Virus record (IMG/VR): IMGVR_UViG_3300039369_000001
Location: 1-6,467 of that record
DNA from: a virus
Length of the DNA stretch: 6,467 nt
Direction: 5' to 3' (one strand)
Part shown: positions 1,182-6,467 of the stretch, in pieces
How the letters are laid out: every line of letters begins with the position of its first letter
How positions within the stretch are numbered: position 1 is the stretch's first letter
Program-made: the position numbers and the translations under genes
Notes under the pieces: generated by a model
Told to the model about the DNA's origin: nothing
The model's database searches: none
Seen by the model: the letters and a program-made list of their open reading frames with translations, nothing else

Positions 1182-2330
1182 ATGGCTAATGTTGGTGCCG
1201 GTGCTGCCGCCGGCGCTGCTGCTGGTTCTGTTGTCCCTGGTATTGGTACAGCTATTGGTGCTCTTGGTGGCGCTGCCATCTCTGCCATTGGCAACTGGTT
1301 TGGAAACAAAAGTAACCGCAAAGCGTCTCGCGAAGCCTTTGAGCGAGAAAGTAAATTCGCTCGTGAAGAACGTTTGGCTCAACAGCAATGGATTGAACAG
1401 ATGTATGAAAAAAACAATTCTTACAATTCACCTGCTGCCCAAATGCAACGTTTGAAAGATGCCGGATTAAATCCGGATTTGATGTACTCCCGTGGTGACG
1501 TAGGAAATGCGACCGCTCCTGAAGCTCCTACGCAAGCTCCTACACCTCGGTATAATGTGATACCTACGAATACTTACGGACAGACTGCACAAATCGCTGC
1601 TGATGCTGGTTTGAAGGCTGCTCAAGCTCGTCTGGCTCATTCCCAGAGTAAGAAAACGGATACTGAAGAAAGCTTGTTGACTGCTGATTATCTGTTGCGT
1701 AAGGCTCGTACCGAAAGTGATATTGAACTTAACAATTCTACTATTTATGTAAATCATGAACTCGGCCAATTAAATCATGCTGAAGCTGAAGTAGCTGCAA
1801 AGAAACTTCAAGAAATAGATGTTGCTATGTCTGAAGCTCGTGAACGTATTAATACATTGAAAGCTCAACAATCGCAGATTGATGAGAATATAGTTCAATT
1901 GAAATTTGATAGGTATCTGCGTTCTAAAGACTTTGAACTTCTTTGTAAGAAAACGTATCAGGACATGAAAGAGAGTAATTCTCGTATTAGTCTTAATGCT
2001 GCTGAAGTGCAGGACATGATGGCTACACAGTTAGCTCGTGTAATGAATCTGAATGCGTCTACTTATATGCAAAAGAAGCAAGGTATGTTAGCTAGTGAAC
2101 AGACTATGACGGAGTTATATAAGCAAACTGGTATTGATATTTCGAATCAGCATGCTAAGTTTAACTTTGATCAAGCTAAAAGTTGGGATTCAACCGAACG
2201 TTTTACTAATGTTGCTACTACCTGGATTAATTCCGTGTCGTTTGCCGTTAGTCAGTTCGCTGGTGCTACTACCACTCTTCAAAAAGGAGGTTTCCTTGGA
2301 AAGTCTATGTCTCCTATAGGATTCCGTTAA
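1182..2330 (+). CDS. VP2: Minor capsid / DNA pilot protein (VP2, functionally H-like).
   Basis: The 382-aa product has a Gly/Ala-rich N-terminus (MANVGAGAAAGAAAGSVVPGIGTAIGALGGAAISAIGNWFG). This is followed by ...NSYNSPAAQMQRLKDAGLNPDLMY, which I recall as typical of gokusho/alpavirus VP2, and then long heptad-like helical stretches. Gene order (after VP1, before VP4) fits. Confidence 0.88.
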   Translation: MANVGAGAAAGAAAGSVVPGIGTAIGALGGAAISAIGNWFGNKSNRKASREAFERESKFAREERLAQQQWIEQMYEKNNSYNSPAAQMQRLKDAGLNPDLMYSRGDVGNATAPEAPTQAPTPRYNVIPTNTYGQTAQIAADAGLKAAQARLAHSQSKKTDTEESLLTADYLLRKARTESDIELNNSTIYVNHELGQLNHAEAEVAAKKLQEIDVAMSEARERINTLKAQQSQIDENIVQLKFDRYLRSKDFELLCKKTYQDMKESNSRISLNAAEVQDMMATQLARVMNLNASTYMQKKQGMLASEQTMTELYKQTGIDISNQHAKFNFDQAKSWDSTERFTNVATTWINSVSFAVSQFAGATTTLQKGGFLGKSMSPIGFR

Positions 2331-2335
2331 TGATT

Positions 2336-2358
2336 AGCCGGGTGTCCCCCGGCTTTTC
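2336..2358 (+). terminator. Intrinsic-terminator-like hairpin agccggg-tgtcc-cccggct followed by TTTT.
   Basis: A perfect 7-bp GC-rich stem (2336-2342 / 2348-2354) with a 5-nt loop and a T-run at 2354-2357, starting 6 nt after the VP2 stop codon. Confidence 0.6.
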
Positions 2359-2378
2359 ACGATTTATTCCAAAATCGT
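2359..2378 (+). other. Hairpin acgattt-attcca-aaatcgt, immediately 5' of the candidate origin nick site.
   Basis: A perfect 7-bp stem (2359-2365 / 2372-2378). The arm sequence acgattt recurs as a direct repeat at 2451-2457. Confidence 0.55.
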
Positions 2379-2385
2379 ACTGCCT

Positions 2386-2395
2386 TAACTTGATA
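2386..2395 (+). promoter_or_regulatory. Candidate plus-strand origin nick site TAACTTG^ATA for the rolling-circle Rep. The predicted cleavage is between G2392 and A2393.
   Basis: 9 of 10 positions match the phiX174 gpA cleavage decamer CAACTTG^ATA. The site is in a non-coding region on the + (viral) strand, about 130 nt upstream of the rep gene and flanked by hairpins. A loosely similar TAAC...GACAC follows, as in the phiX 30-nt origin. Confidence 0.5.
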
Positions 2396-2496
2396 AGTAT
2401 GTAGTAACTGACACACCCTCTAATCTTTGATTATTTCCACCGGAAAAGTTACGATTTGCCCAAAGTGCGGCTTCCGTCCGCTATAGTATCTTAAAC

Positions 2497-2511
2497 TTCC
2501 GCGAAGCGGAA
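2497..2511 (+). other. Mini-hairpin ttccgc-gaa-gcggaa containing the GCGAAGC core.
   Basis: A perfect 6-bp stem (2497-2502 / 2506-2511) with a GAA triloop. It is followed directly by an A6T5A6 tract and the rep ATG at 2526. Confidence 0.65.
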
Positions 2512-2525
2512 AAAATTTTTAAAAA

Positions 2526-3881
2526 ATGAACAACATTTACTGCGAAGATCCTAAAGTAATCTGGCATCCGCATGCTTCTAAGCTGATACAAAAGTATCGT
2601 ACGTTTACAATGCCTTCTGGAACATATCACGGTTCTGTTCTTCATGTGAACAAGAATCATGTTAATAAAAATAATATTGATAAATATACTATTGTAAATC
2701 CTGCTACTGGTGAAACATTTCCAATGTTTTTAATTGTTCCCTGTAACAAATGTGCTCTTTGTAATGAAAAGAAAGCTCAACAATGGTCGTTTCGTGCTCT
2801 CTGTGAATCATATACCTCTAATAAACAAGCTTATTTTATAACTCTTACTTATAACAATGAACATTTACCGAAAGCTGGAGTATTTCCGGAAGAGATTCAA
2901 CTCTTTTTTAAACGCCTTCGTACCAAATTGGATAGACGTGGTATTTCTCATAATCTTCGCTATATTGCAGTTTCTGAATACGGACATTGGTCTAAACGTC
3001 CTCACTATCATATTATACTATGGAATTTTCCTGATAACTTCGAAACCTCGTACTCGCGGCTTACGCTCATTGAAAGCTGCTGGCGTCGTCCTACTGGTGA
3101 TTACAATCCTGACGGATCACCTGTTACTAGGTCTATTGGTTTTGCTTATTGTGTTCCTGTTATCAATGGTGGTATCAATTATGTCATGAAATATATGAAT
3201 AAACGTGAAAAATCTCCTGAAGGTATGAATCCTACATTTATGCTTGCTTCTCGCAAGAATGGTGGTATTGGTTCTGCCTATGCTGAACAGCTTCGCGCAT
3301 TCTATGAACAACAGCCTGACACTTGTGATATGTCTGTTATTAATATATATACCGGTCAATCTTTGACTACTATGTTACCTCGTTATTACCGTATGAAGTT
3401 TATGCCTTCTACCTCAATGTGTTATGACCCTAACTTTATTAAATACTTCAAGGATACGGTTCGTTGGTTTGAAGTTGCTCGTTATCTTCATAAACAATAT
3501 AAGCTTCCTTTTAAATTCACTTACCCTGAAGAGTATCTTCGTCTCGTTCGTATGACTAATAAAACTCCTTACTATAATCCTTCTAAAACTATTGTAAATG
3601 ATACATTTATAAAGTATTATCTTCCTCAATTCTGTTCACAAACTGTTTATGAGGATTTGTATTATAAGGCATTCTCTTATGCTCTTGATTGTTTATCGAC
3701 TGCTCTTGTATTCTTTGACTCCTCGCAAGTCCTAAAACATGAAAAATCTTTACATATGAATGCTCTCCAACAAGCTGCTATTAACGCTCGTATGGCTATG
3801 CGTGAAGAACTCAATCTTAAGAAAGCTTCTTACGATGTTCGTGAGAAACTGAATAGACATTATAGAAAAGAGAAGATTTAA
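2526..3881 (+). CDS. VP4: Replication initiation protein (VP4 / phiX174 gpA-like HUH rolling-circle endonuclease).
   Basis: The 451-aa product carries motif 1 YFITLTY. Motif 2 (HUH) is RPHYHIILW, with H-Y-H encoded at 3003-3011. Motif 3 has two tyrosines spaced by three residues, YVMKYMNK (3180-3203), as in phiX gpA. It also has CNKCALC and SRKNGGIG blocks of the kind seen in Microviridae VP4 proteins. Confidence 0.95.
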   Translation: MNNIYCEDPKVIWHPHASKLIQKYRTFTMPSGTYHGSVLHVNKNHVNKNNIDKYTIVNPATGETFPMFLIVPCNKCALCNEKKAQQWSFRALCESYTSNKQAYFITLTYNNEHLPKAGVFPEEIQLFFKRLRTKLDRRGISHNLRYIAVSEYGHWSKRPHYHIILWNFPDNFETSYSRLTLIESCWRRPTGDYNPDGSPVTRSIGFAYCVPVINGGINYVMKYMNKREKSPEGMNPTFMLASRKNGGIGSAYAEQLRAFYEQQPDTCDMSVINIYTGQSLTTMLPRYYRMKFMPSTSMCYDPNFIKYFKDTVRWFEVARYLHKQYKLPFKFTYPEEYLRLVRMTNKTPYYNPSKTIVNDTFIKYYLPQFCSQTVYEDLYYKAFSYALDCLSTALVFFDSSQVLKHEKSLHMNALQQAAINARMAMREELNLKKASYDVREKLNRHYRKEKI

Positions 3882-3915
3882 ACTAGATTTAACTACCAAT
3901 TAACACTATATTAAC
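3878..3915 (+). repeat. Four TTAA(A)C motifs phased at exactly 11 nt (starts at 3878, 3889, 3900 and 3911); iteron- or operator-like.
   Basis: The motifs are ttaaac 3878-3883, ttaac 3889-3893, ttaac 3900-3904 and ttaac 3911-3915. Larger units also repeat: agatttaaact (3874-3884) with agatttaact (3885-3894), and attaaca (3899-3905) with attaaca (3910-3916). The first unit overlaps the rep stop codon. Confidence 0.6.
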
Positions 3916-3926
3916 AATAGAATTCT

Positions 3927-3934
3927 TATCTTTG
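3927..3934 (+). promoter_or_regulatory. Candidate Bacteroidetes -7 promoter element TAtcTTTG, upstream of the small-ORF/capsid block.
   Basis: Exact TAnnTTTG match 40 nt upstream of the ATG at 3974, in a non-coding region. No clear TTTG -33 element is present; that position is occupied by the phased TTAAC repeats. Confidence 0.3.
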
Positions 3935-3973
3935 TAGTGTAAGAAAAAGGAATACTAATTTAATTTATGTGTT

Positions 3974-4156
3974 ATGGAAGATTTTATTGTTTTCTTTGTT
4001 AATAAGAATGGTTTGAATGACTTCGTGGTTATTAAAGCTTTGGATTTAAAAGATGCTATGCGTACTTCTAGATTATTTTCCAAGGCTTCTAATTGTGAGA
4101 TTCTAGGTGTTTGTCGTGATTGTTTTAAATCATTTAAATTGGATCAATATGAATAA
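3974..4156 (+). CDS. Hypothetical small protein (60 aa).
   Basis: This is the first ORF after the 3882-3973 non-coding region. Its stop overlaps the next ATG (ATGAATAA, an 8-nt overlap). Codon bias matches the phage genes. No recognisable motif. Confidence 0.55.
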   Translation: MEDFIVFFVNKNGLNDFVVIKALDLKDAMRTSRLFSKASNCEILGVCRDCFKSFKLDQYE

Positions 4157-4328
4157 GTATACGTTTATTTTTGAAGTTGCTTGGCGTGATTCTGAATCTG
4201 GTCAAATGAAGCCTCATGAGTATCGTAAGAAAACTCAAATGACTATTAATGATGCTCGTACTTATGCTCGTCGATTGTCTAATATTCAAAATGTGATTTC
4301 CGTTTTGTTTTATAAGCAAATGTTTTAA
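4149..4328 (+). CDS. Hypothetical small basic protein (59 aa, net charge about +5), possibly a DNA-binding or packaging accessory protein.
   Basis: I prefer the ATG at 4149 to the track start at 4107, because it gives a short coupling overlap with the upstream stop. The upstream 14 residues are the hydrophobic artefact expected of the +1 frame. Product: MNKYTFIFEVAWRDSESGQMKPHEYRKKTQMTINDARTYARRLSNIQNVISVLFYKQMF. Confidence 0.5.
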   Translation: MNKYTFIFEVAWRDSESGQMKPHEYRKKTQMTINDARTYARRLSNIQNVISVLFYKQMF

Positions 4329-4329
4329 T

Positions 4330-4494
4330 ATGTATAAAGGTGTTATAAAGTTCGTTAAGAGAGAAACTCTTCATGAGGAGTTTTCTATAAACATTGGTAT
4401 TTTTAACCGTCCTTCGACTGCTGAACGATTTCGTAAGCAATTACAGGAAGCTAATGTTGGATATGATGTTTCATTAATTTTAGAAAAGTTATGA
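4330..4494 (+). CDS. Hypothetical small protein (54 aa), not in the supplied ORF track because of its size.
   Basis: The ATG at 4330 is 1 nt after the previous stop. My translation is MYKGVIKFVKRETLHEEFSINIGIFNRPSTAERFRKQLQEANVGYDVSLILEKL, with TGA at 4492-4494 overlapping the next ATG (ATGA). It fills an otherwise unexplained 160-nt gap in a very compact genome. Confidence 0.5.
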   Translation: MYKGVIKFVKRETLHEEFSINIGIFNRPSTAERFRKQLQEANVGYDVSLILEKL

Positions 4495-4688
4495 AAATTA
4501 CTCCTGCCCAGTGGATTAAGCTTGTACAGCTTATTTCCACATTTATTATTGGTGTGATTACTGCTCTTACAGTACAGTCTTGTACTGCGTCTATGTCTGT
4601 GTTTTGGAAAAATCAAAATTCAAAACAGGATTCTCAACAAACTACCCAGCAAAAGGTAGATTCTGTAACTATTAAACCTAATTTTTAA
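4491..4688 (+). CDS. Small membrane-anchored or lipoprotein-like protein (65 aa); candidate lysis or exclusion factor.
   Basis: Product: MKITPAQWIKLVQLISTFIIGVITALTVQSC-TASMSVFWKNQNSKQDSQQTTQQKVDSVTIKPNF. It has a basic n-region, a hydrophobic span of about 20 residues and a lipobox-like V-Q-S-C (Cys31 encoded at 4581-4583). The tail is polar and rich in Q, S, T and K. The stop TAA (4686-4688) abuts the capsid ATG (4689). Confidence 0.6.
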   Translation: MKITPAQWIKLVQLISTFIIGVITALTVQSCTASMSVFWKNQNSKQDSQQTTQQKVDSVTIKPNF

Positions 4689-6467
4689 ATGGCACAAAAT
4701 GTTTTTGACGCTACATTTGATGTGAATAATCGCATTGATGTAAATTCTTTTGATTGGTCTCATGTGAATAATTTGACTACTGATTTTGGTCGTATTACTC
4801 CTGTCTTCTGTGAGCTTGTTCCTGCTAAAGGTTCTCTTCGTATTAATCCCGAGTTTGGTCTTGAGTTGATGCCTATGGTCTTCCCTGTTCAAACTCGTAT
4901 GTTTGCTCGTTTGAACTTCTTCAAGGTTACGCTTCGTTCTATGTGGGAAGACTATTCTGATTTTATTTCTAATTTCCGTGAAGATTTGGAGGAGCCTTAT
5001 TTACTTCTCGGTTCTTCTAATTTTTCTTCTATGCTTGGTACCGGTTCTCTTGGTGATTATCTTGGTGTCCCTACTCGGAATGTTGGTAATGAAGTTCCCT
5101 TGACTTCTGTAGTTAATCAATGTTCGGCTAATTCTATGAAGGTTTATAGCCCTTCAGTTACTCTTCAAGACGCTACTTCATCTATTATGTCTGGTTCTCA
5201 ACCTTCTTCTACTTGTGCCCTGTCATTTGGTAATTCTGATGGTCGTTCACAGGTAGCTTCTTTTGATGTTAATGTATCTGGCTATAATGATGCTATGCGT
5301 TCGTATCAATTGTATCTAGGTATTAAGAAAGCTAATGGTAAGGATTTGAATTCTTATTCTGGTTCTATCCTTTTTGGTACTTCTGAAAAATCTTATAAAT
5401 TTTTTAGAAATGTTACTTTTCGTTGGAATTCGACTACGTCTCTTTATGAGGCTCGTCTTACTTTTAATGAGAAATATTCCTCTATTAAGGTTTTATTGCA
5501 AACTTCTCCGGGTGTTGCTGGTTCTTCGTTATGGCTATTTGGTCCAAATGCTGCTTCTGCTTTAGCTTTTGTTGGTGAATCTGAAACTACTTATCAGACT
5601 ACTCCGTTTGCTACAAAGGATAAACCGGCTAATCTTCGTTTGCTTGCTTATCGTTTTCGTGCTTATGAATCTGTGTATAATGCTTATTATCGTGATATCC
5701 GTAATAATCCGTTTGTAGTTAATGGTCGTCCTGTTTATAACAAATGGCTTCCTACTATGAAAGGTGGTGCAGATGATACTACATATACTCTTCATCAATG
5801 TAATTGGGAACGTGACTTCCTGACTACTGCTGTACCTAATCCTCAACAAGGTGCTAACGCTCCTCTCGTCGGTCTTACCGTAGGTGATGTTGTTACCCGT
5901 TCTGAAGATGGTACGTTGTCTGTTCAAAAACAAACTGTTCTTGTTGACGAAGATGGCGCTAAATATGGTGTTTCTTACAGAGTATCTGAAGATGGTGAAC
6001 GTCTTGTAGGTGTTGATTACGACCCTGTTTCGGAAAAAACACCTGTGACTGCTATTAATTCCTATGCTGAATTGGCTGCCCTTGCTACGGAACAAGGTTC
6101 AGGTTTCACAATTGAAACTCTCCGGTATGTCAATGCTTACCAAAAGTTCTTGGAGCTTAATATGCGTAAAGGTTTCTCGTATAAGCAAATCATGCAAGGT
6201 CGTTGGGATATTGATATTCGGTTTGATGAACTTCTTATGCCTGAATTTATTGGAGGTATTTCCCGTGAATTGTCTATGCGCACCGTCGAACAAACCGTTG
6301 ACCAACAAAGTGCGTCTTCTCAAGGACAATATGCAGAGGCTCTTGGTTCTAAGACAGGTATCGCTGGTGTTTATGGTTCTACATCTAATAATATTGAAGT
6401 ATTCTGTGATGAGGAATCGTATATTATTGGTTTGTTAACTGTTACTCCTGTGCCTATTTATACACAA
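4689..6467 (+). CDS. VP1: Major capsid protein (VP1 / phiX174 F-like), 5' portion. The frame is open to the window end and continues at 99..512 in the circular genome, for about 730 aa in total.
   Basis: It is absent from the ORF track only because no stop falls inside the window. My translation found no in-frame stop between 5040 and 6467. Product: MAQNVFDATFDVNNRIDVNSFDWSHVNNLTTDFGRITPVFCELVPAKGSLRINPEF.... Conserved Microviridae capsid blocks include GSLGDYLGVP (from about 5046), LRLLAYRFRAYESVYNAYYRD (from about 5634), NWERDFLTTAVPNPQQG, and TIETLRYVNAYQKFLELNMRKG...MPEFIGG. Confidence 0.95.
   Translation, partial: MAQNVFDATFDVNNRIDVNSFDWSHVNNLTTDFGRITPVFCELVPAKGSLRINPEFGLELMPMVFPVQTRMFARLNFFKVTLRSMWEDYSDFISNFREDLEEPYLLLGSSNFSSMLGTGSLGDYLGVPTRNVGNEVPLTSVVNQCSANSMKVYSPSVTLQDATSSIMSGSQPSSTCALSFGNSDGRSQVASFDVNVSGYNDAMRSYQLYLGIKKANGKDLNSYSGSILFGTSEKSYKFFRNVTFRWNSTTSLYEARLTFNEKYSSIKVLLQTSPGVAGSSLWLFGPNAASALAFVGESETTYQTTPFATKDKPANLRLLAYRFRAYESVYNAYYRDIRNNPFVVNGRPVYNKWLPTMKGGADDTTYTLHQCNWERDFLTTAVPNPQQGANAPLVGLTVGDVVTRSEDGTLSVQKQTVLVDEDGAKYGVSYRVSEDGERLVGVDYDPVSEKTPVTAINSYAELAALATEQGSGFTIETLRYVNAYQKFLELNMRKGFSYKQIMQGRWDIDIRFDELLMPEFIGGISRELSMRTVEQTVDQQSASSQGQYAEALGSKTGIAGVYGSTSNNIEVFCDEESYIIGLLTVTPVPIYTQ
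6370..6467. repeat. Terminal redundancy (copy 2), identical to 1-98.
   Basis: 98/98 identity with the window start. Confidence 0.97.

Follow-up and report, generated by a model that had tools for sequence, protein, structure and literature searches.

A phiX174-type cleavage motif marks a probable plus-strand replication origin between VP2 and Rep in a Bacteroidota-type microvirus genome

We analyzed a gut microvirus genome, the 6467-base record IMGVR_UViG_3300039369_000001, which we refer to in its full length as the window. The window carries an exact 98-nt terminal repeat (1-98 and 6370-6467), and is thus a circular microvirus genome (6369 nt) whose opening point falls within the VP1 gene; all genes are on the + strand. 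The 195-nt non-coding stretch between the open reading frames (ORFs) for VP2 (1182-2330) and the replication initiator Rep, also called VP4 (2526-3881), contains a 32-nt two-part element at 2385-2416: TTAACTYG^ATAA, an A/T-rich spacer, and then GTAACTGACACACC. In the window the full element reads TTAACTTG^ATAAGTATGTAGTAACTGACACACC. Based on its spacing, conservation, copy number, and strand, we consider it very likely that this element is the plus-strand (viral-strand) origin, at which Rep is predicted to nick between G2392 and A2393.

A first-pass annotation, made from the letters of the window alone, had pointed to a phiX174-like cleavage motif in this region and proposed it as a candidate plus-strand origin. 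Indeed, AACTTGATA is present as one exact copy on the + strand at 2387-2395, and the decamer TAACTTGATA (2386-2395, +) matches the decamer cleaved by the phiX174 gene A protein (gpA), CAACTTGATA, at nine of 10 positions. The motif is followed by AGTATGTAGTA, an A/T-rich spacer as annotated (73% A+T vs 63% genome-wide), and then by GTAACTGACACAC. The annotation had put the chance expectation of the 9-mer at about 0.05, which was the right order of magnitude; we obtained 0.11 per window counting both strands, with at least one copy in 22 of 200 dinucleotide shuffles, and so the 9-mer is not significant by itself. One-mismatch versions are likewise near expectation (four matches vs 3.4 expected). 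The spaced pattern ACTTGATA-N14-GAC occurs once in the window and in none of 200 dinucleotide shuffles. The significance of the motif comes from the comparison with relatives, to judge from the alignments and pattern counts below. The annotation also correctly listed ACTTG at 570-574 and 659-663, neither followed by AT or TGACAC. We rejected these two copies as nick sites: both lie in the stem of a hairpin (559-675), lack GAT and TGACAC, and are kept in close relatives only.

The origin of phiX174, G4, and alpha3 (Bullavirinae) is a 30-nt sequence, CAACTTG^ATATTAATAACACTATAGACCAC, that is cut by gpA. According to van Mansfeld, Baas, Fluit, and Jansz, the phiX174 origin reportedly consists of a recognition sequence, an A/T spacer, and a "key" binding sequence, and the decamer by itself is said to be cut in single-stranded DNA. 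In the phiX174 record, the viral-strand rep_origin is annotated at 4306, within CCAACTTGATATTAATAACACTATAGACCACC. Cleavage and religation of the 30-nt origin take place between G4305 and A4306, and synonymous changes are detrimental in codons Q107-D115, which span it (10.64898/2026.07.25.740675); a review divides the origin into a nick site and a bind site (PMC5714925). The window element shares AACTTGATA with phiX174, as well as the A/T-rich spacer that comes next, its single copy on the viral/coding strand, and a GAC at offsets 22-24 from the A of ACTTGATA. The right half-site at 2405-2416 is placed like TATAGACCAC of phiX174, and it is the putative Rep-binding ("key") part of the origin. 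There are also differences. The right half reads AACTGACAC in the window but TATAGACCAC in phiX174, the window's clade has either T or C (Y) directly 5' of the scissile G, and the window element has a hairpin 3-10 nt before it in this clade. It is intergenic, whereas the phiX174 origin is inside gene A, a location typical of Bullavirinae though probably not defining for this kind of origin; the first-pass annotation had remarked on this difference, and the element proved to be intergenic in almost all of the other genomes we examined.

To determine whether the core is conserved, as the annotation had suggested doing for ACTTGATA, we aligned the VP2-Rep intergenic regions of the window and five relatives with Reps that are 46-96% identical. 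The six sequences share a near-invariant block, TAACT-Y-GATAA-NN-AT-NN-AGTAA-Y-TGACACACC, while the few bases between the upstream hairpin and the block vary, as does the sequence 3' of the block. ACT-Y-GAT is present in every aligned relative. The annotated core thus held up with one change: T2391 is C in three of the six sequences, and when the window is counted with the 13 relatives closest to it (Rep 93-96% identical), each of the two bases is found in 7/14; the conserved core is therefore ACTYGATA. This two-part element also lies 3' of VP2 in genomes whose Reps are only 30-36% identical, e.g., in chicken, hare, lemur, and human-gut microviruses.

We then searched 92 genomes that were gathered by Rep similarity, not by motif, and dereplicated to 31 (Rep down to ~30% identity). 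The pattern ACT[CT]GAT[AT]-N11-15-TGACA occurs on the Rep-coding strand of 18 of the 31 genomes, in exactly one copy each, and on the opposite strand of none (0/31); dinucleotide shuffles of the set gave a mean of 0.085 genomes with a match to this strict pattern. In an unbiased count of shared 8-mers, AACTGACA is present in 21/31 genomes, which places it among the top four, tied with two others behind one at 22/31; at least some of the others reflect coding constraints, e.g., the HYH codons of Rep. A sequence logo of 24 genomes shows low information in the flanks (<0.5 bit at -10 to -3) and a spacer conserved in A/T composition only, with +8 to +13 almost exclusively A or T. The offset between the two halves, from the A of ACTYGAT to the T of TGACA, is 21 nt in 22 of the 24. 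Conservation also extends to bases beyond the search pattern: relative to TGACA, position -2 is A in 24/24, -3 is A in 21/24, and +5 is C in 20/24. Even where the intergenic region is otherwise unalignable, the element is retained, and a position weight matrix (PWM) scan recovers variants of it in further clades.

Two further sets, also fetched by Rep similarity, extend the element to other microvirus lineages. In an environmental clade with small genomes (~4.2 kb), all 15 dereplicated genomes have CTTGATATATTAGTGCTWATTGACAC once on the + strand and never on the - strand. Among Chp2-related gokushovirus-like genomes, CTTG[AT]T-N11-16-NTGAC[AC] is found in 44 of 61 dereplicated genomes on the + strand vs four on the - strand (shuffle mean 1.28), and CTTG is invariant among the 44 elements. 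In the gokushovirus-like genomes that carry the element, Chp2, and SpV4, ACTTGAT (ACTTGT in SpV4) is followed by TGACAC, TGATAG, or TTGACG. The annotation had raised the possibility that nick-site specificity is conserved between very distant microvirus lineages; our comparison supports this and allows it to be extended, with recognizable versions in several distant lineages whose Reps barely align with gpA. A blastn search with the gokushovirus-like stem-loop consensus matched 367 GenBank microvirus records; among the 30 matches listed, 28 have no annotated feature beneath, two overlap a coding gene, and none is annotated as rep_origin.

In both the gokushovirus-like and the small-genome clades, CTTGAT is mostly in a hairpin loop, and the stem changes in sequence while its pairing is kept. 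A typical loop version is CACAGTTAC-TCACTTGAT-GTAACTGTG-N6-CTGACACC. Enclosing stems of at least 6 bp are present in 32/44 gokushovirus-like and 14/15 small-genome elements, compared to 4-8% in controls with the 5' arm shuffled. The stem covariation score is 0.274, vs 0.160 in shuffles (0/500 reach the observed score) and at most 0.159 for slid partners. Of the cultured phages, Chp2 (2903-2948) has a loop version with a 14-bp stem, CTAGCGTATAACAG-TCTACTTGAT-CTGTTATACGCTAG-GTGATAGC, and SpV4 (~516-552) has GGGGCATATAT-TACTTGT-TATAATATGCCCC-ATTGACGAC. The window's clade differs. All 22 window-like genomes have a separate hairpin that ends 3-10 nt 5' of the motif (mean minimum free energy -9.1 vs -4.1 kcal/mol in random windows), while the stem enclosing the motif averages 4.1 bp and reaches at least 6 bp in 1/19 genomes, which is near the control level. 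Altogether, three layouts of the core are seen: phiX174 has it inside the Rep gene with no hairpin beside it; most of the sampled gokushovirus-like genomes, with Chp2 and SpV4 among them, display it in the loop of a covarying hairpin; and the window's clade has it 3-10 nt after a separate hairpin.

Both hairpin layouts have parallels among other nucleases of the HUH type. HUH-nuclease origins typically present the nick site in a hairpin loop; in origins of circular Rep-encoding single-stranded (CRESS) DNA viruses this is a nonanucleotide, and at relaxase oriT nic sites an inverted repeat lies a few nucleotides 5' of nic. The gokushovirus-like version, with its ~9-nt loop YYACTTGAT, resembles the former, and the window version, with a hairpin 5' of the predicted nick, resembles the latter. 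These are analogies of site function and not of membership, as the sequences and Rep lineages are unrelated and microvirus Reps have two catalytic tyrosines vs one in CRESS Reps. By the same analogy, the hairpin beside the site may position Rep or aid single-strandedness. Within the microviruses, Olo Ndela et al. (2022) described conserved hairpins with invariant loops and compensatory stem changes before Rep in two tiny-genome clades, the reekeekee- and roodoodooviruses (PMC9865509). Going by the published description, these have the same architecture as most of our sampled gokushovirus-like genomes, and unlike the window's clade they do not place the conserved sequence beside the hairpin; they were not linked to the gpA nick sequence (PMC9865509).

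The position of the element relative to Rep varies. It is usually 40-350 nt 5' of Rep, as in the window's clade and most gokushovirus-like genomes, but one clade has it 350-700 nt 3' of Rep, eight gokushovirus-like genomes have it at a distance of more than 2.6 kb, the L079 group has it ~1.5 kb upstream, and phiX174 has it within gene A. This suggests an autonomous cis site rather than a 5' untranslated region of Rep. The hosts of element-bearing phages include Bacteroidota, Chlamydia, Spiroplasma, E. coli, and others, which have differing promoter types, and so the shared reader of the element is most simply Rep, the one DNA enzyme encoded by all of these phages.

The window's Rep has the motifs expected of a phiX174-type initiator: motif I FITLTY, the HUH motif RPHYHIILW with an acidic residue ahead of it (SEYG...RPHYHIILW), and the two-tyrosine motif YVMKYMNK. 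Across an 11-sequence Rep alignment, motif I FxTxTY, SEYG...R(P/A)HYH, and YxxKY are invariant, including residues T106, T108, E151, H160, H162, Y219, K222, and Y223. The same catalytic set is found in gpA, i.e., T202/T204, E254, H263/H265, and Y343/Y347 (10.64898/2026.07.25.740675), so both cognate initiators are two-tyrosine HUH Reps that carry TLT, E, HUH, and YxxKY. An hhalign comparison of Rep with phiX174 gpA aligned 68 columns, reaching from motif I to HUH, with a probability of 80% (E 1.4e-5), which indicates that the two proteins are homologous at the catalytic core and otherwise unalignable. They are assigned to different Pfam families, PF23343 for the window Rep and, according to a review, Phage_GPA (PF05840) for gpA (PMC5714925). 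Ahead of the nuclease motifs there is a cysteine cluster, C6 ... C73-x2-C76-x2-C79, that is invariant in all aligned Reps, including the gokushovirus-like ones, with no counterpart seen in the phiX174 gpA sequence; this cluster may form a zinc-binding module for DNA recognition. By sequence, Rep has no relative of solved structure, and a single-sequence AlphaFold model of Rep had a pLDDT of 36.7.

Based on homology with gpA, we propose that the element together with the hairpin at 2359-2378 would serve as the rolling-circle plus-strand origin of this Bacteroidota-type microvirus. Rep would bind the double-stranded replicative form at the right half-site, the A/T-rich spacer would then melt, and one tyrosine of YVMKY would cut the + strand at G2392/A2393 and become covalently joined to the 5' phosphate of A2393. 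From the 3'-OH of G2392, host polymerase and helicase would carry synthesis forward, displacing the old strand. Once the regenerated site is exposed as single-stranded DNA, the second tyrosine would cut it, and the first strand would be religated into a circle. The cut by Rep at this site, the bond that is cut, binding through the right half, and a function of the hairpin are all drawn by analogy from phiX174 and other HUH systems.

Because the element usually lies just 5' of Rep, it could instead be a regulatory site of the Rep gene (promoter, operator, or 5' leader), kept because Rep expression needs tight control, with a likeness to phiX174 that is coincidental or reflects Rep autoregulation without nicking. 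The conserved block between the element and the Rep start codon (2448-2466) could be a promoter element, and TTGACA in the right half of gokushovirus-like versions equals the sigma-70 -35 consensus. However, no sigma-70-like promoters were called in 2250-2600, and 2331-2525 contains no exact TAnnTTTG, whereas exact, conserved boxes of this type are present in the two other intergenic regions. A regulatory site also does not readily account for the clades in which the element is 3' of Rep, far from it, or inside its gene, for its occurrence in phages of hosts with different promoter types, or for a fixed two-part spacing that equals that of a biochemically defined origin. We therefore regard a purely regulatory element as improbable. 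A different possibility is that the hairpin and conserved sequence form, in the single-stranded genome, a complementary-strand origin or packaging signal that is read by host primase, RNA polymerase, PriA, or the capsid machinery, and is not a Rep nick site. The hairpin always accompanies the motif, and the 30-bp phiX174 origin is reportedly also needed for packaging (work of Fluit/Baas and Aoyama/Hayashi). Olo Ndela et al. tentatively proposed negative-strand initiation for the hairpins before Rep in their two tiny-genome clades (PMC9865509). Yet the invariant part is CTTGAT, which is looped or unpaired, while the stem sequence changes freely. CTTGAT is identical to the gpA cleavage site, and gpA takes no part in minus-strand priming (PMC5714925). 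Furthermore, the core is shared by phages of Bacteroidota, Chlamydia, Spiroplasma, and E. coli, whose host priming systems are not alike, and the window has a separate, much stronger single-strand-origin candidate in the hairpin at 559-675. Altogether, this makes a minus-strand or packaging role quite unlikely.

Integration offers another explanation, since dif-like attachment (att) sites are, like our element, short conserved non-coding sites that are intergenic and next to Rep. Krupovic and Forterre (2011) proposed integration through such sites for Bacteroidetes microvirus proviruses and placed them at the provirus ends, including upstream of Rep (PMC3091885), and the two arms and short A/T-rich spacer of the element would suit an attP for host XerC/D integration. 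To evaluate this, we used a relative (Rep 49% identical) that is integrated in a 3.7-Mb contig of Bacteroides sp. f07 (L101). The ends of this provirus are 20-nt direct repeats, ACAT[A/T]ATAATGATTATTCCC, 6468 nt apart (L101 4940-4959 and 11408-11427), and the right-hand repeat is just past the Rep stop codon. The element itself, TAACTTGATATATATAGAGTAACTGACAC, is intact ~100 nt 5' of Rep with viral sequence on both sides. Because the junction repeats have a different sequence and are 3' of Rep, with the element internal, the element is not the att site. In addition, its arms are direct repeats (TAACTTGA and TAACTGA) and not inverted around a 6-8 bp center as in dif, and it is also present in the lytic phiX174 and in Chp2; an att function is thus very unlikely. 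The place equivalent to the f07 repeats, which directly precede ATCTTTGTAGTGT, is the Rep-to-small-ORF intergenic region of the window (3882-3973), with its conserved TTAACACTNTATTAACAATAGAAT...TATCTTTGTAGTGT block, and this region is a candidate for the dif-like attP of the window phage. Lastly, the element could be a chance likeness in a generally conserved intergenic region, with no specific motif function. The 9-mer expectation given above and the fair conservation of the entire intergenic region among close relatives are in line with this, but strand-specific single copies in 18/31, 15/15, and 44/61 dereplicated genomes, vs ~0.1-1.3 by shuffles, and the persistence of the element amid variable flanking bases and otherwise unalignable sequence leave chance with hardly any weight.

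Several points nonetheless weigh against the origin assignment, in addition to the 9-mer statistics in the window and the tentative complementary-strand reading of similar hairpins by Olo Ndela et al. There is no clear match to the patterns in 13/31 genomes of the window set and 17/61 gokushovirus-like genomes, nor in phiMH2K with the patterns and PWM used, so the element is either not universal or has diverged beyond these patterns. The genome counts are not fully independent, because the compared genomes share descent, and in the logo the search pattern itself dictates the core positions. The right half, TGACAC, differs from TAGACCAC of phiX174, and its binding role is assumed. Specificity is also not identical, as position 2391 alternates between T and C while at least one synonymous change of phiX174 L108 is detrimental (10.64898/2026.07.25.740675). 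Experiments on origin function and cleavage come from phiX-like microviruses only, and cutting by VP4 is proposed from homology with gpA. Finally, a regulatory role as Rep operator or promoter could coexist with origin function, given that the element is usually just 5' of Rep.

Coordinates of the predicted origin, neighboring structures, and genes in the window are given in Table 1.

Table 1. Features of the window, with the parts of the predicted origin listed first
Feature	Position	Strand	Remarks
Left half-site, predicted nick site	2385-2395	+	TTAACTTG^ATA; predicted cut G2392/A2393
A/T-rich spacer	2396-2404	+	AGTATGTAG; length constrained, sequence free
Right half-site	2405-2416	+	TAACTGACACAC(C); positional counterpart of phiX174 ...TATAGACCAC
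Variable spacer, hairpin to core	2379-2384	+	Differs even between near-identical relatives
Upstream hairpin	2359-2378	+	ACGATTT-ATTCCA-AAATCGT; ends 9 nt before ACTTGATA
GC-rich hairpin	2336-2354	+	GCCGGGT-GTCCC-CCCGGC, 7-bp stem, then TTTT; just past VP2 stop
Downstream block	2448-2466	+	GTTACGATTTGCCCAAAGT; holds third ACGATTT copy (= arm of upstream hairpin)
Hairpin before Rep	2497-2511	+	TTCCGC-GAA-GCGGAA, then A/T run; 15 nt 5' of Rep ATG
VP1, major capsid protein	4689 across junction to 512	+	Pfam Phage_F
ORF856, 107 aa	856-1179	+	
VP2, pilot protein	1182-2330	+	
Rep/VP4	2526-3881	+	Pfam PF23343, E 2.8e-18
Four small ORFs	3974-4688	+	

The first-pass annotation had described the motif as bracketed by three hairpins, and all three were recovered by folding. 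Folding of the 201-nt region gave z = -3.96, with the motif left essentially unpaired in the predicted single-strand structure. The sequence of the upstream hairpin is kept in relatives with Reps that are 46-96% identical, and hairpins at this place in more distant members are unrelated in sequence. The GC-rich hairpin is probably the VP2 transcription terminator and the upstream edge of the origin region; relatives have a GC hairpin of different sequence at the same place, and a consensus terminator scan did not call the window's hairpin. The hairpin before Rep is outside the conserved element, and in the intergenic alignment only the window and MK765551 have this segment. The downstream block, with the consensus GTTRCGAWTTGCY..AAGT, is shared by relatives with Rep identities as low as ~37%, its distance from the core varies, and more distant clades lack it; it could act as a promoter element for Rep or as an accessory site for Rep binding. 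We considered a long-range pairing of AAATCGTA (2372-2379) with TACGATTT (2450-2457), which would put the core in a 70-nt loop, and rejected it because relatives with another upstream hairpin keep the downstream block with no compensating changes. An Rfam scan gave no match at the VP2-Rep intergenic locus. A megablast match to PQ006744 stops at 2478, but ordinary blastn aligns the two sequences past this point, and so we see no signal of a recombination breakpoint beside the origin.

Elsewhere in the genome, the VP1-ORF856 intergenic region contains the 117-nt, mostly A/T hairpin at 559-675 (dG -23.9 kcal/mol, z -6.9). ON840028 and PQ006744 keep it, its two arms apparently having changed in step, while PQ006824 has a different GC-rich sequence in its place; we consider the hairpin a candidate complementary-strand (single-strand) origin. 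Downstream of it, at 759-818, there is a sub-threshold match over the full model length to the Rfam Flavo-1 RNA, a Bacteroidota motif (38.8 bits vs a gathering threshold of 42, E 1e-5), which recurs in ON840028 (39.1 bits) only, with none in ten other relatives. Just 5' of ORF856, AGCCCGCYCGGACGCCC (806-822) is kept in ON840028, PQ006744, and MK765551. The distant PQ006824 largely keeps this block as GCCGGAAGCCCC, and the remainder of that intergenic region is unalignable there.

The closest GenBank record to the window is ON840028, a rat-gut microvirus (88.5% DNA identity, 96.5% Rep identity). Relatives with Reps that are ~50% identical are integrated in, or binned with, Bacteroides genomes, and therefore the host of the window phage is probably a member of the Bacteroidales. 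Exact Bacteroides-type -7 promoter boxes (TAnnTTTG) are present in the two other intergenic regions, TACCTTTG at 679-686 and TATCTTTG at 3927-3934. The latter is kept in all four aligned relatives; the former is kept in ON840028 and PQ006744, and PQ006824 has AACTTGGC there. The two boxes fit a Bacteroidota host, and their positions suggest two transcription units, one before ORF856/VP2 and one before the small ORFs/VP1.

Viewed across the family, the phiX174-type origin core appears in another genomic and structural setting, alongside a very divergent Rep, and this appears to be unreported. In the full-text literature we found no plus-strand origin described for non-phiX-like (non-Bullavirinae) microviruses; subscription papers, e.g., the original Chp1, Chp2, and SpV4 genome papers, were outside this search, so an earlier remark is possible. 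The major microvirus diversity papers mention no origin outside the phiX174 group. We think it fairly likely that one ancestral two-part origin, YCTTG^AT - ~14 nt - TGAC(A/C), serves most Microviridae, including phiX-like, gokushovirus-like, and Bacteroidota-type members whose Reps have diverged almost beyond recognition, and that it has been repackaged in three ways. For an HUH system this result is not mechanistically surprising, but it generalizes across several major lineages of a very large virus family.

If there is one ancestral origin, the origin and exact nick position would be readable from sequence in thousands of uncultured microvirus genomes, and Rep-origin specificity would lie mostly in the right half-site and the hairpin context. 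An origin that can be read from sequence would give many thousands of metagenomic microvirus genomes a natural zero point for coordinates and a feature to annotate, as well as providing a basis for origin-plus-Rep vectors or phagemids for Bacteroides and other hard-to-engineer hosts. It would make the origin of uncultured microviruses directly testable, e.g., precisely and at low cost by oligonucleotide cleavage with recombinant VP4, and it would serve as a gauge of how far an HUH nuclease can diverge while its cleavage sequence is retained.

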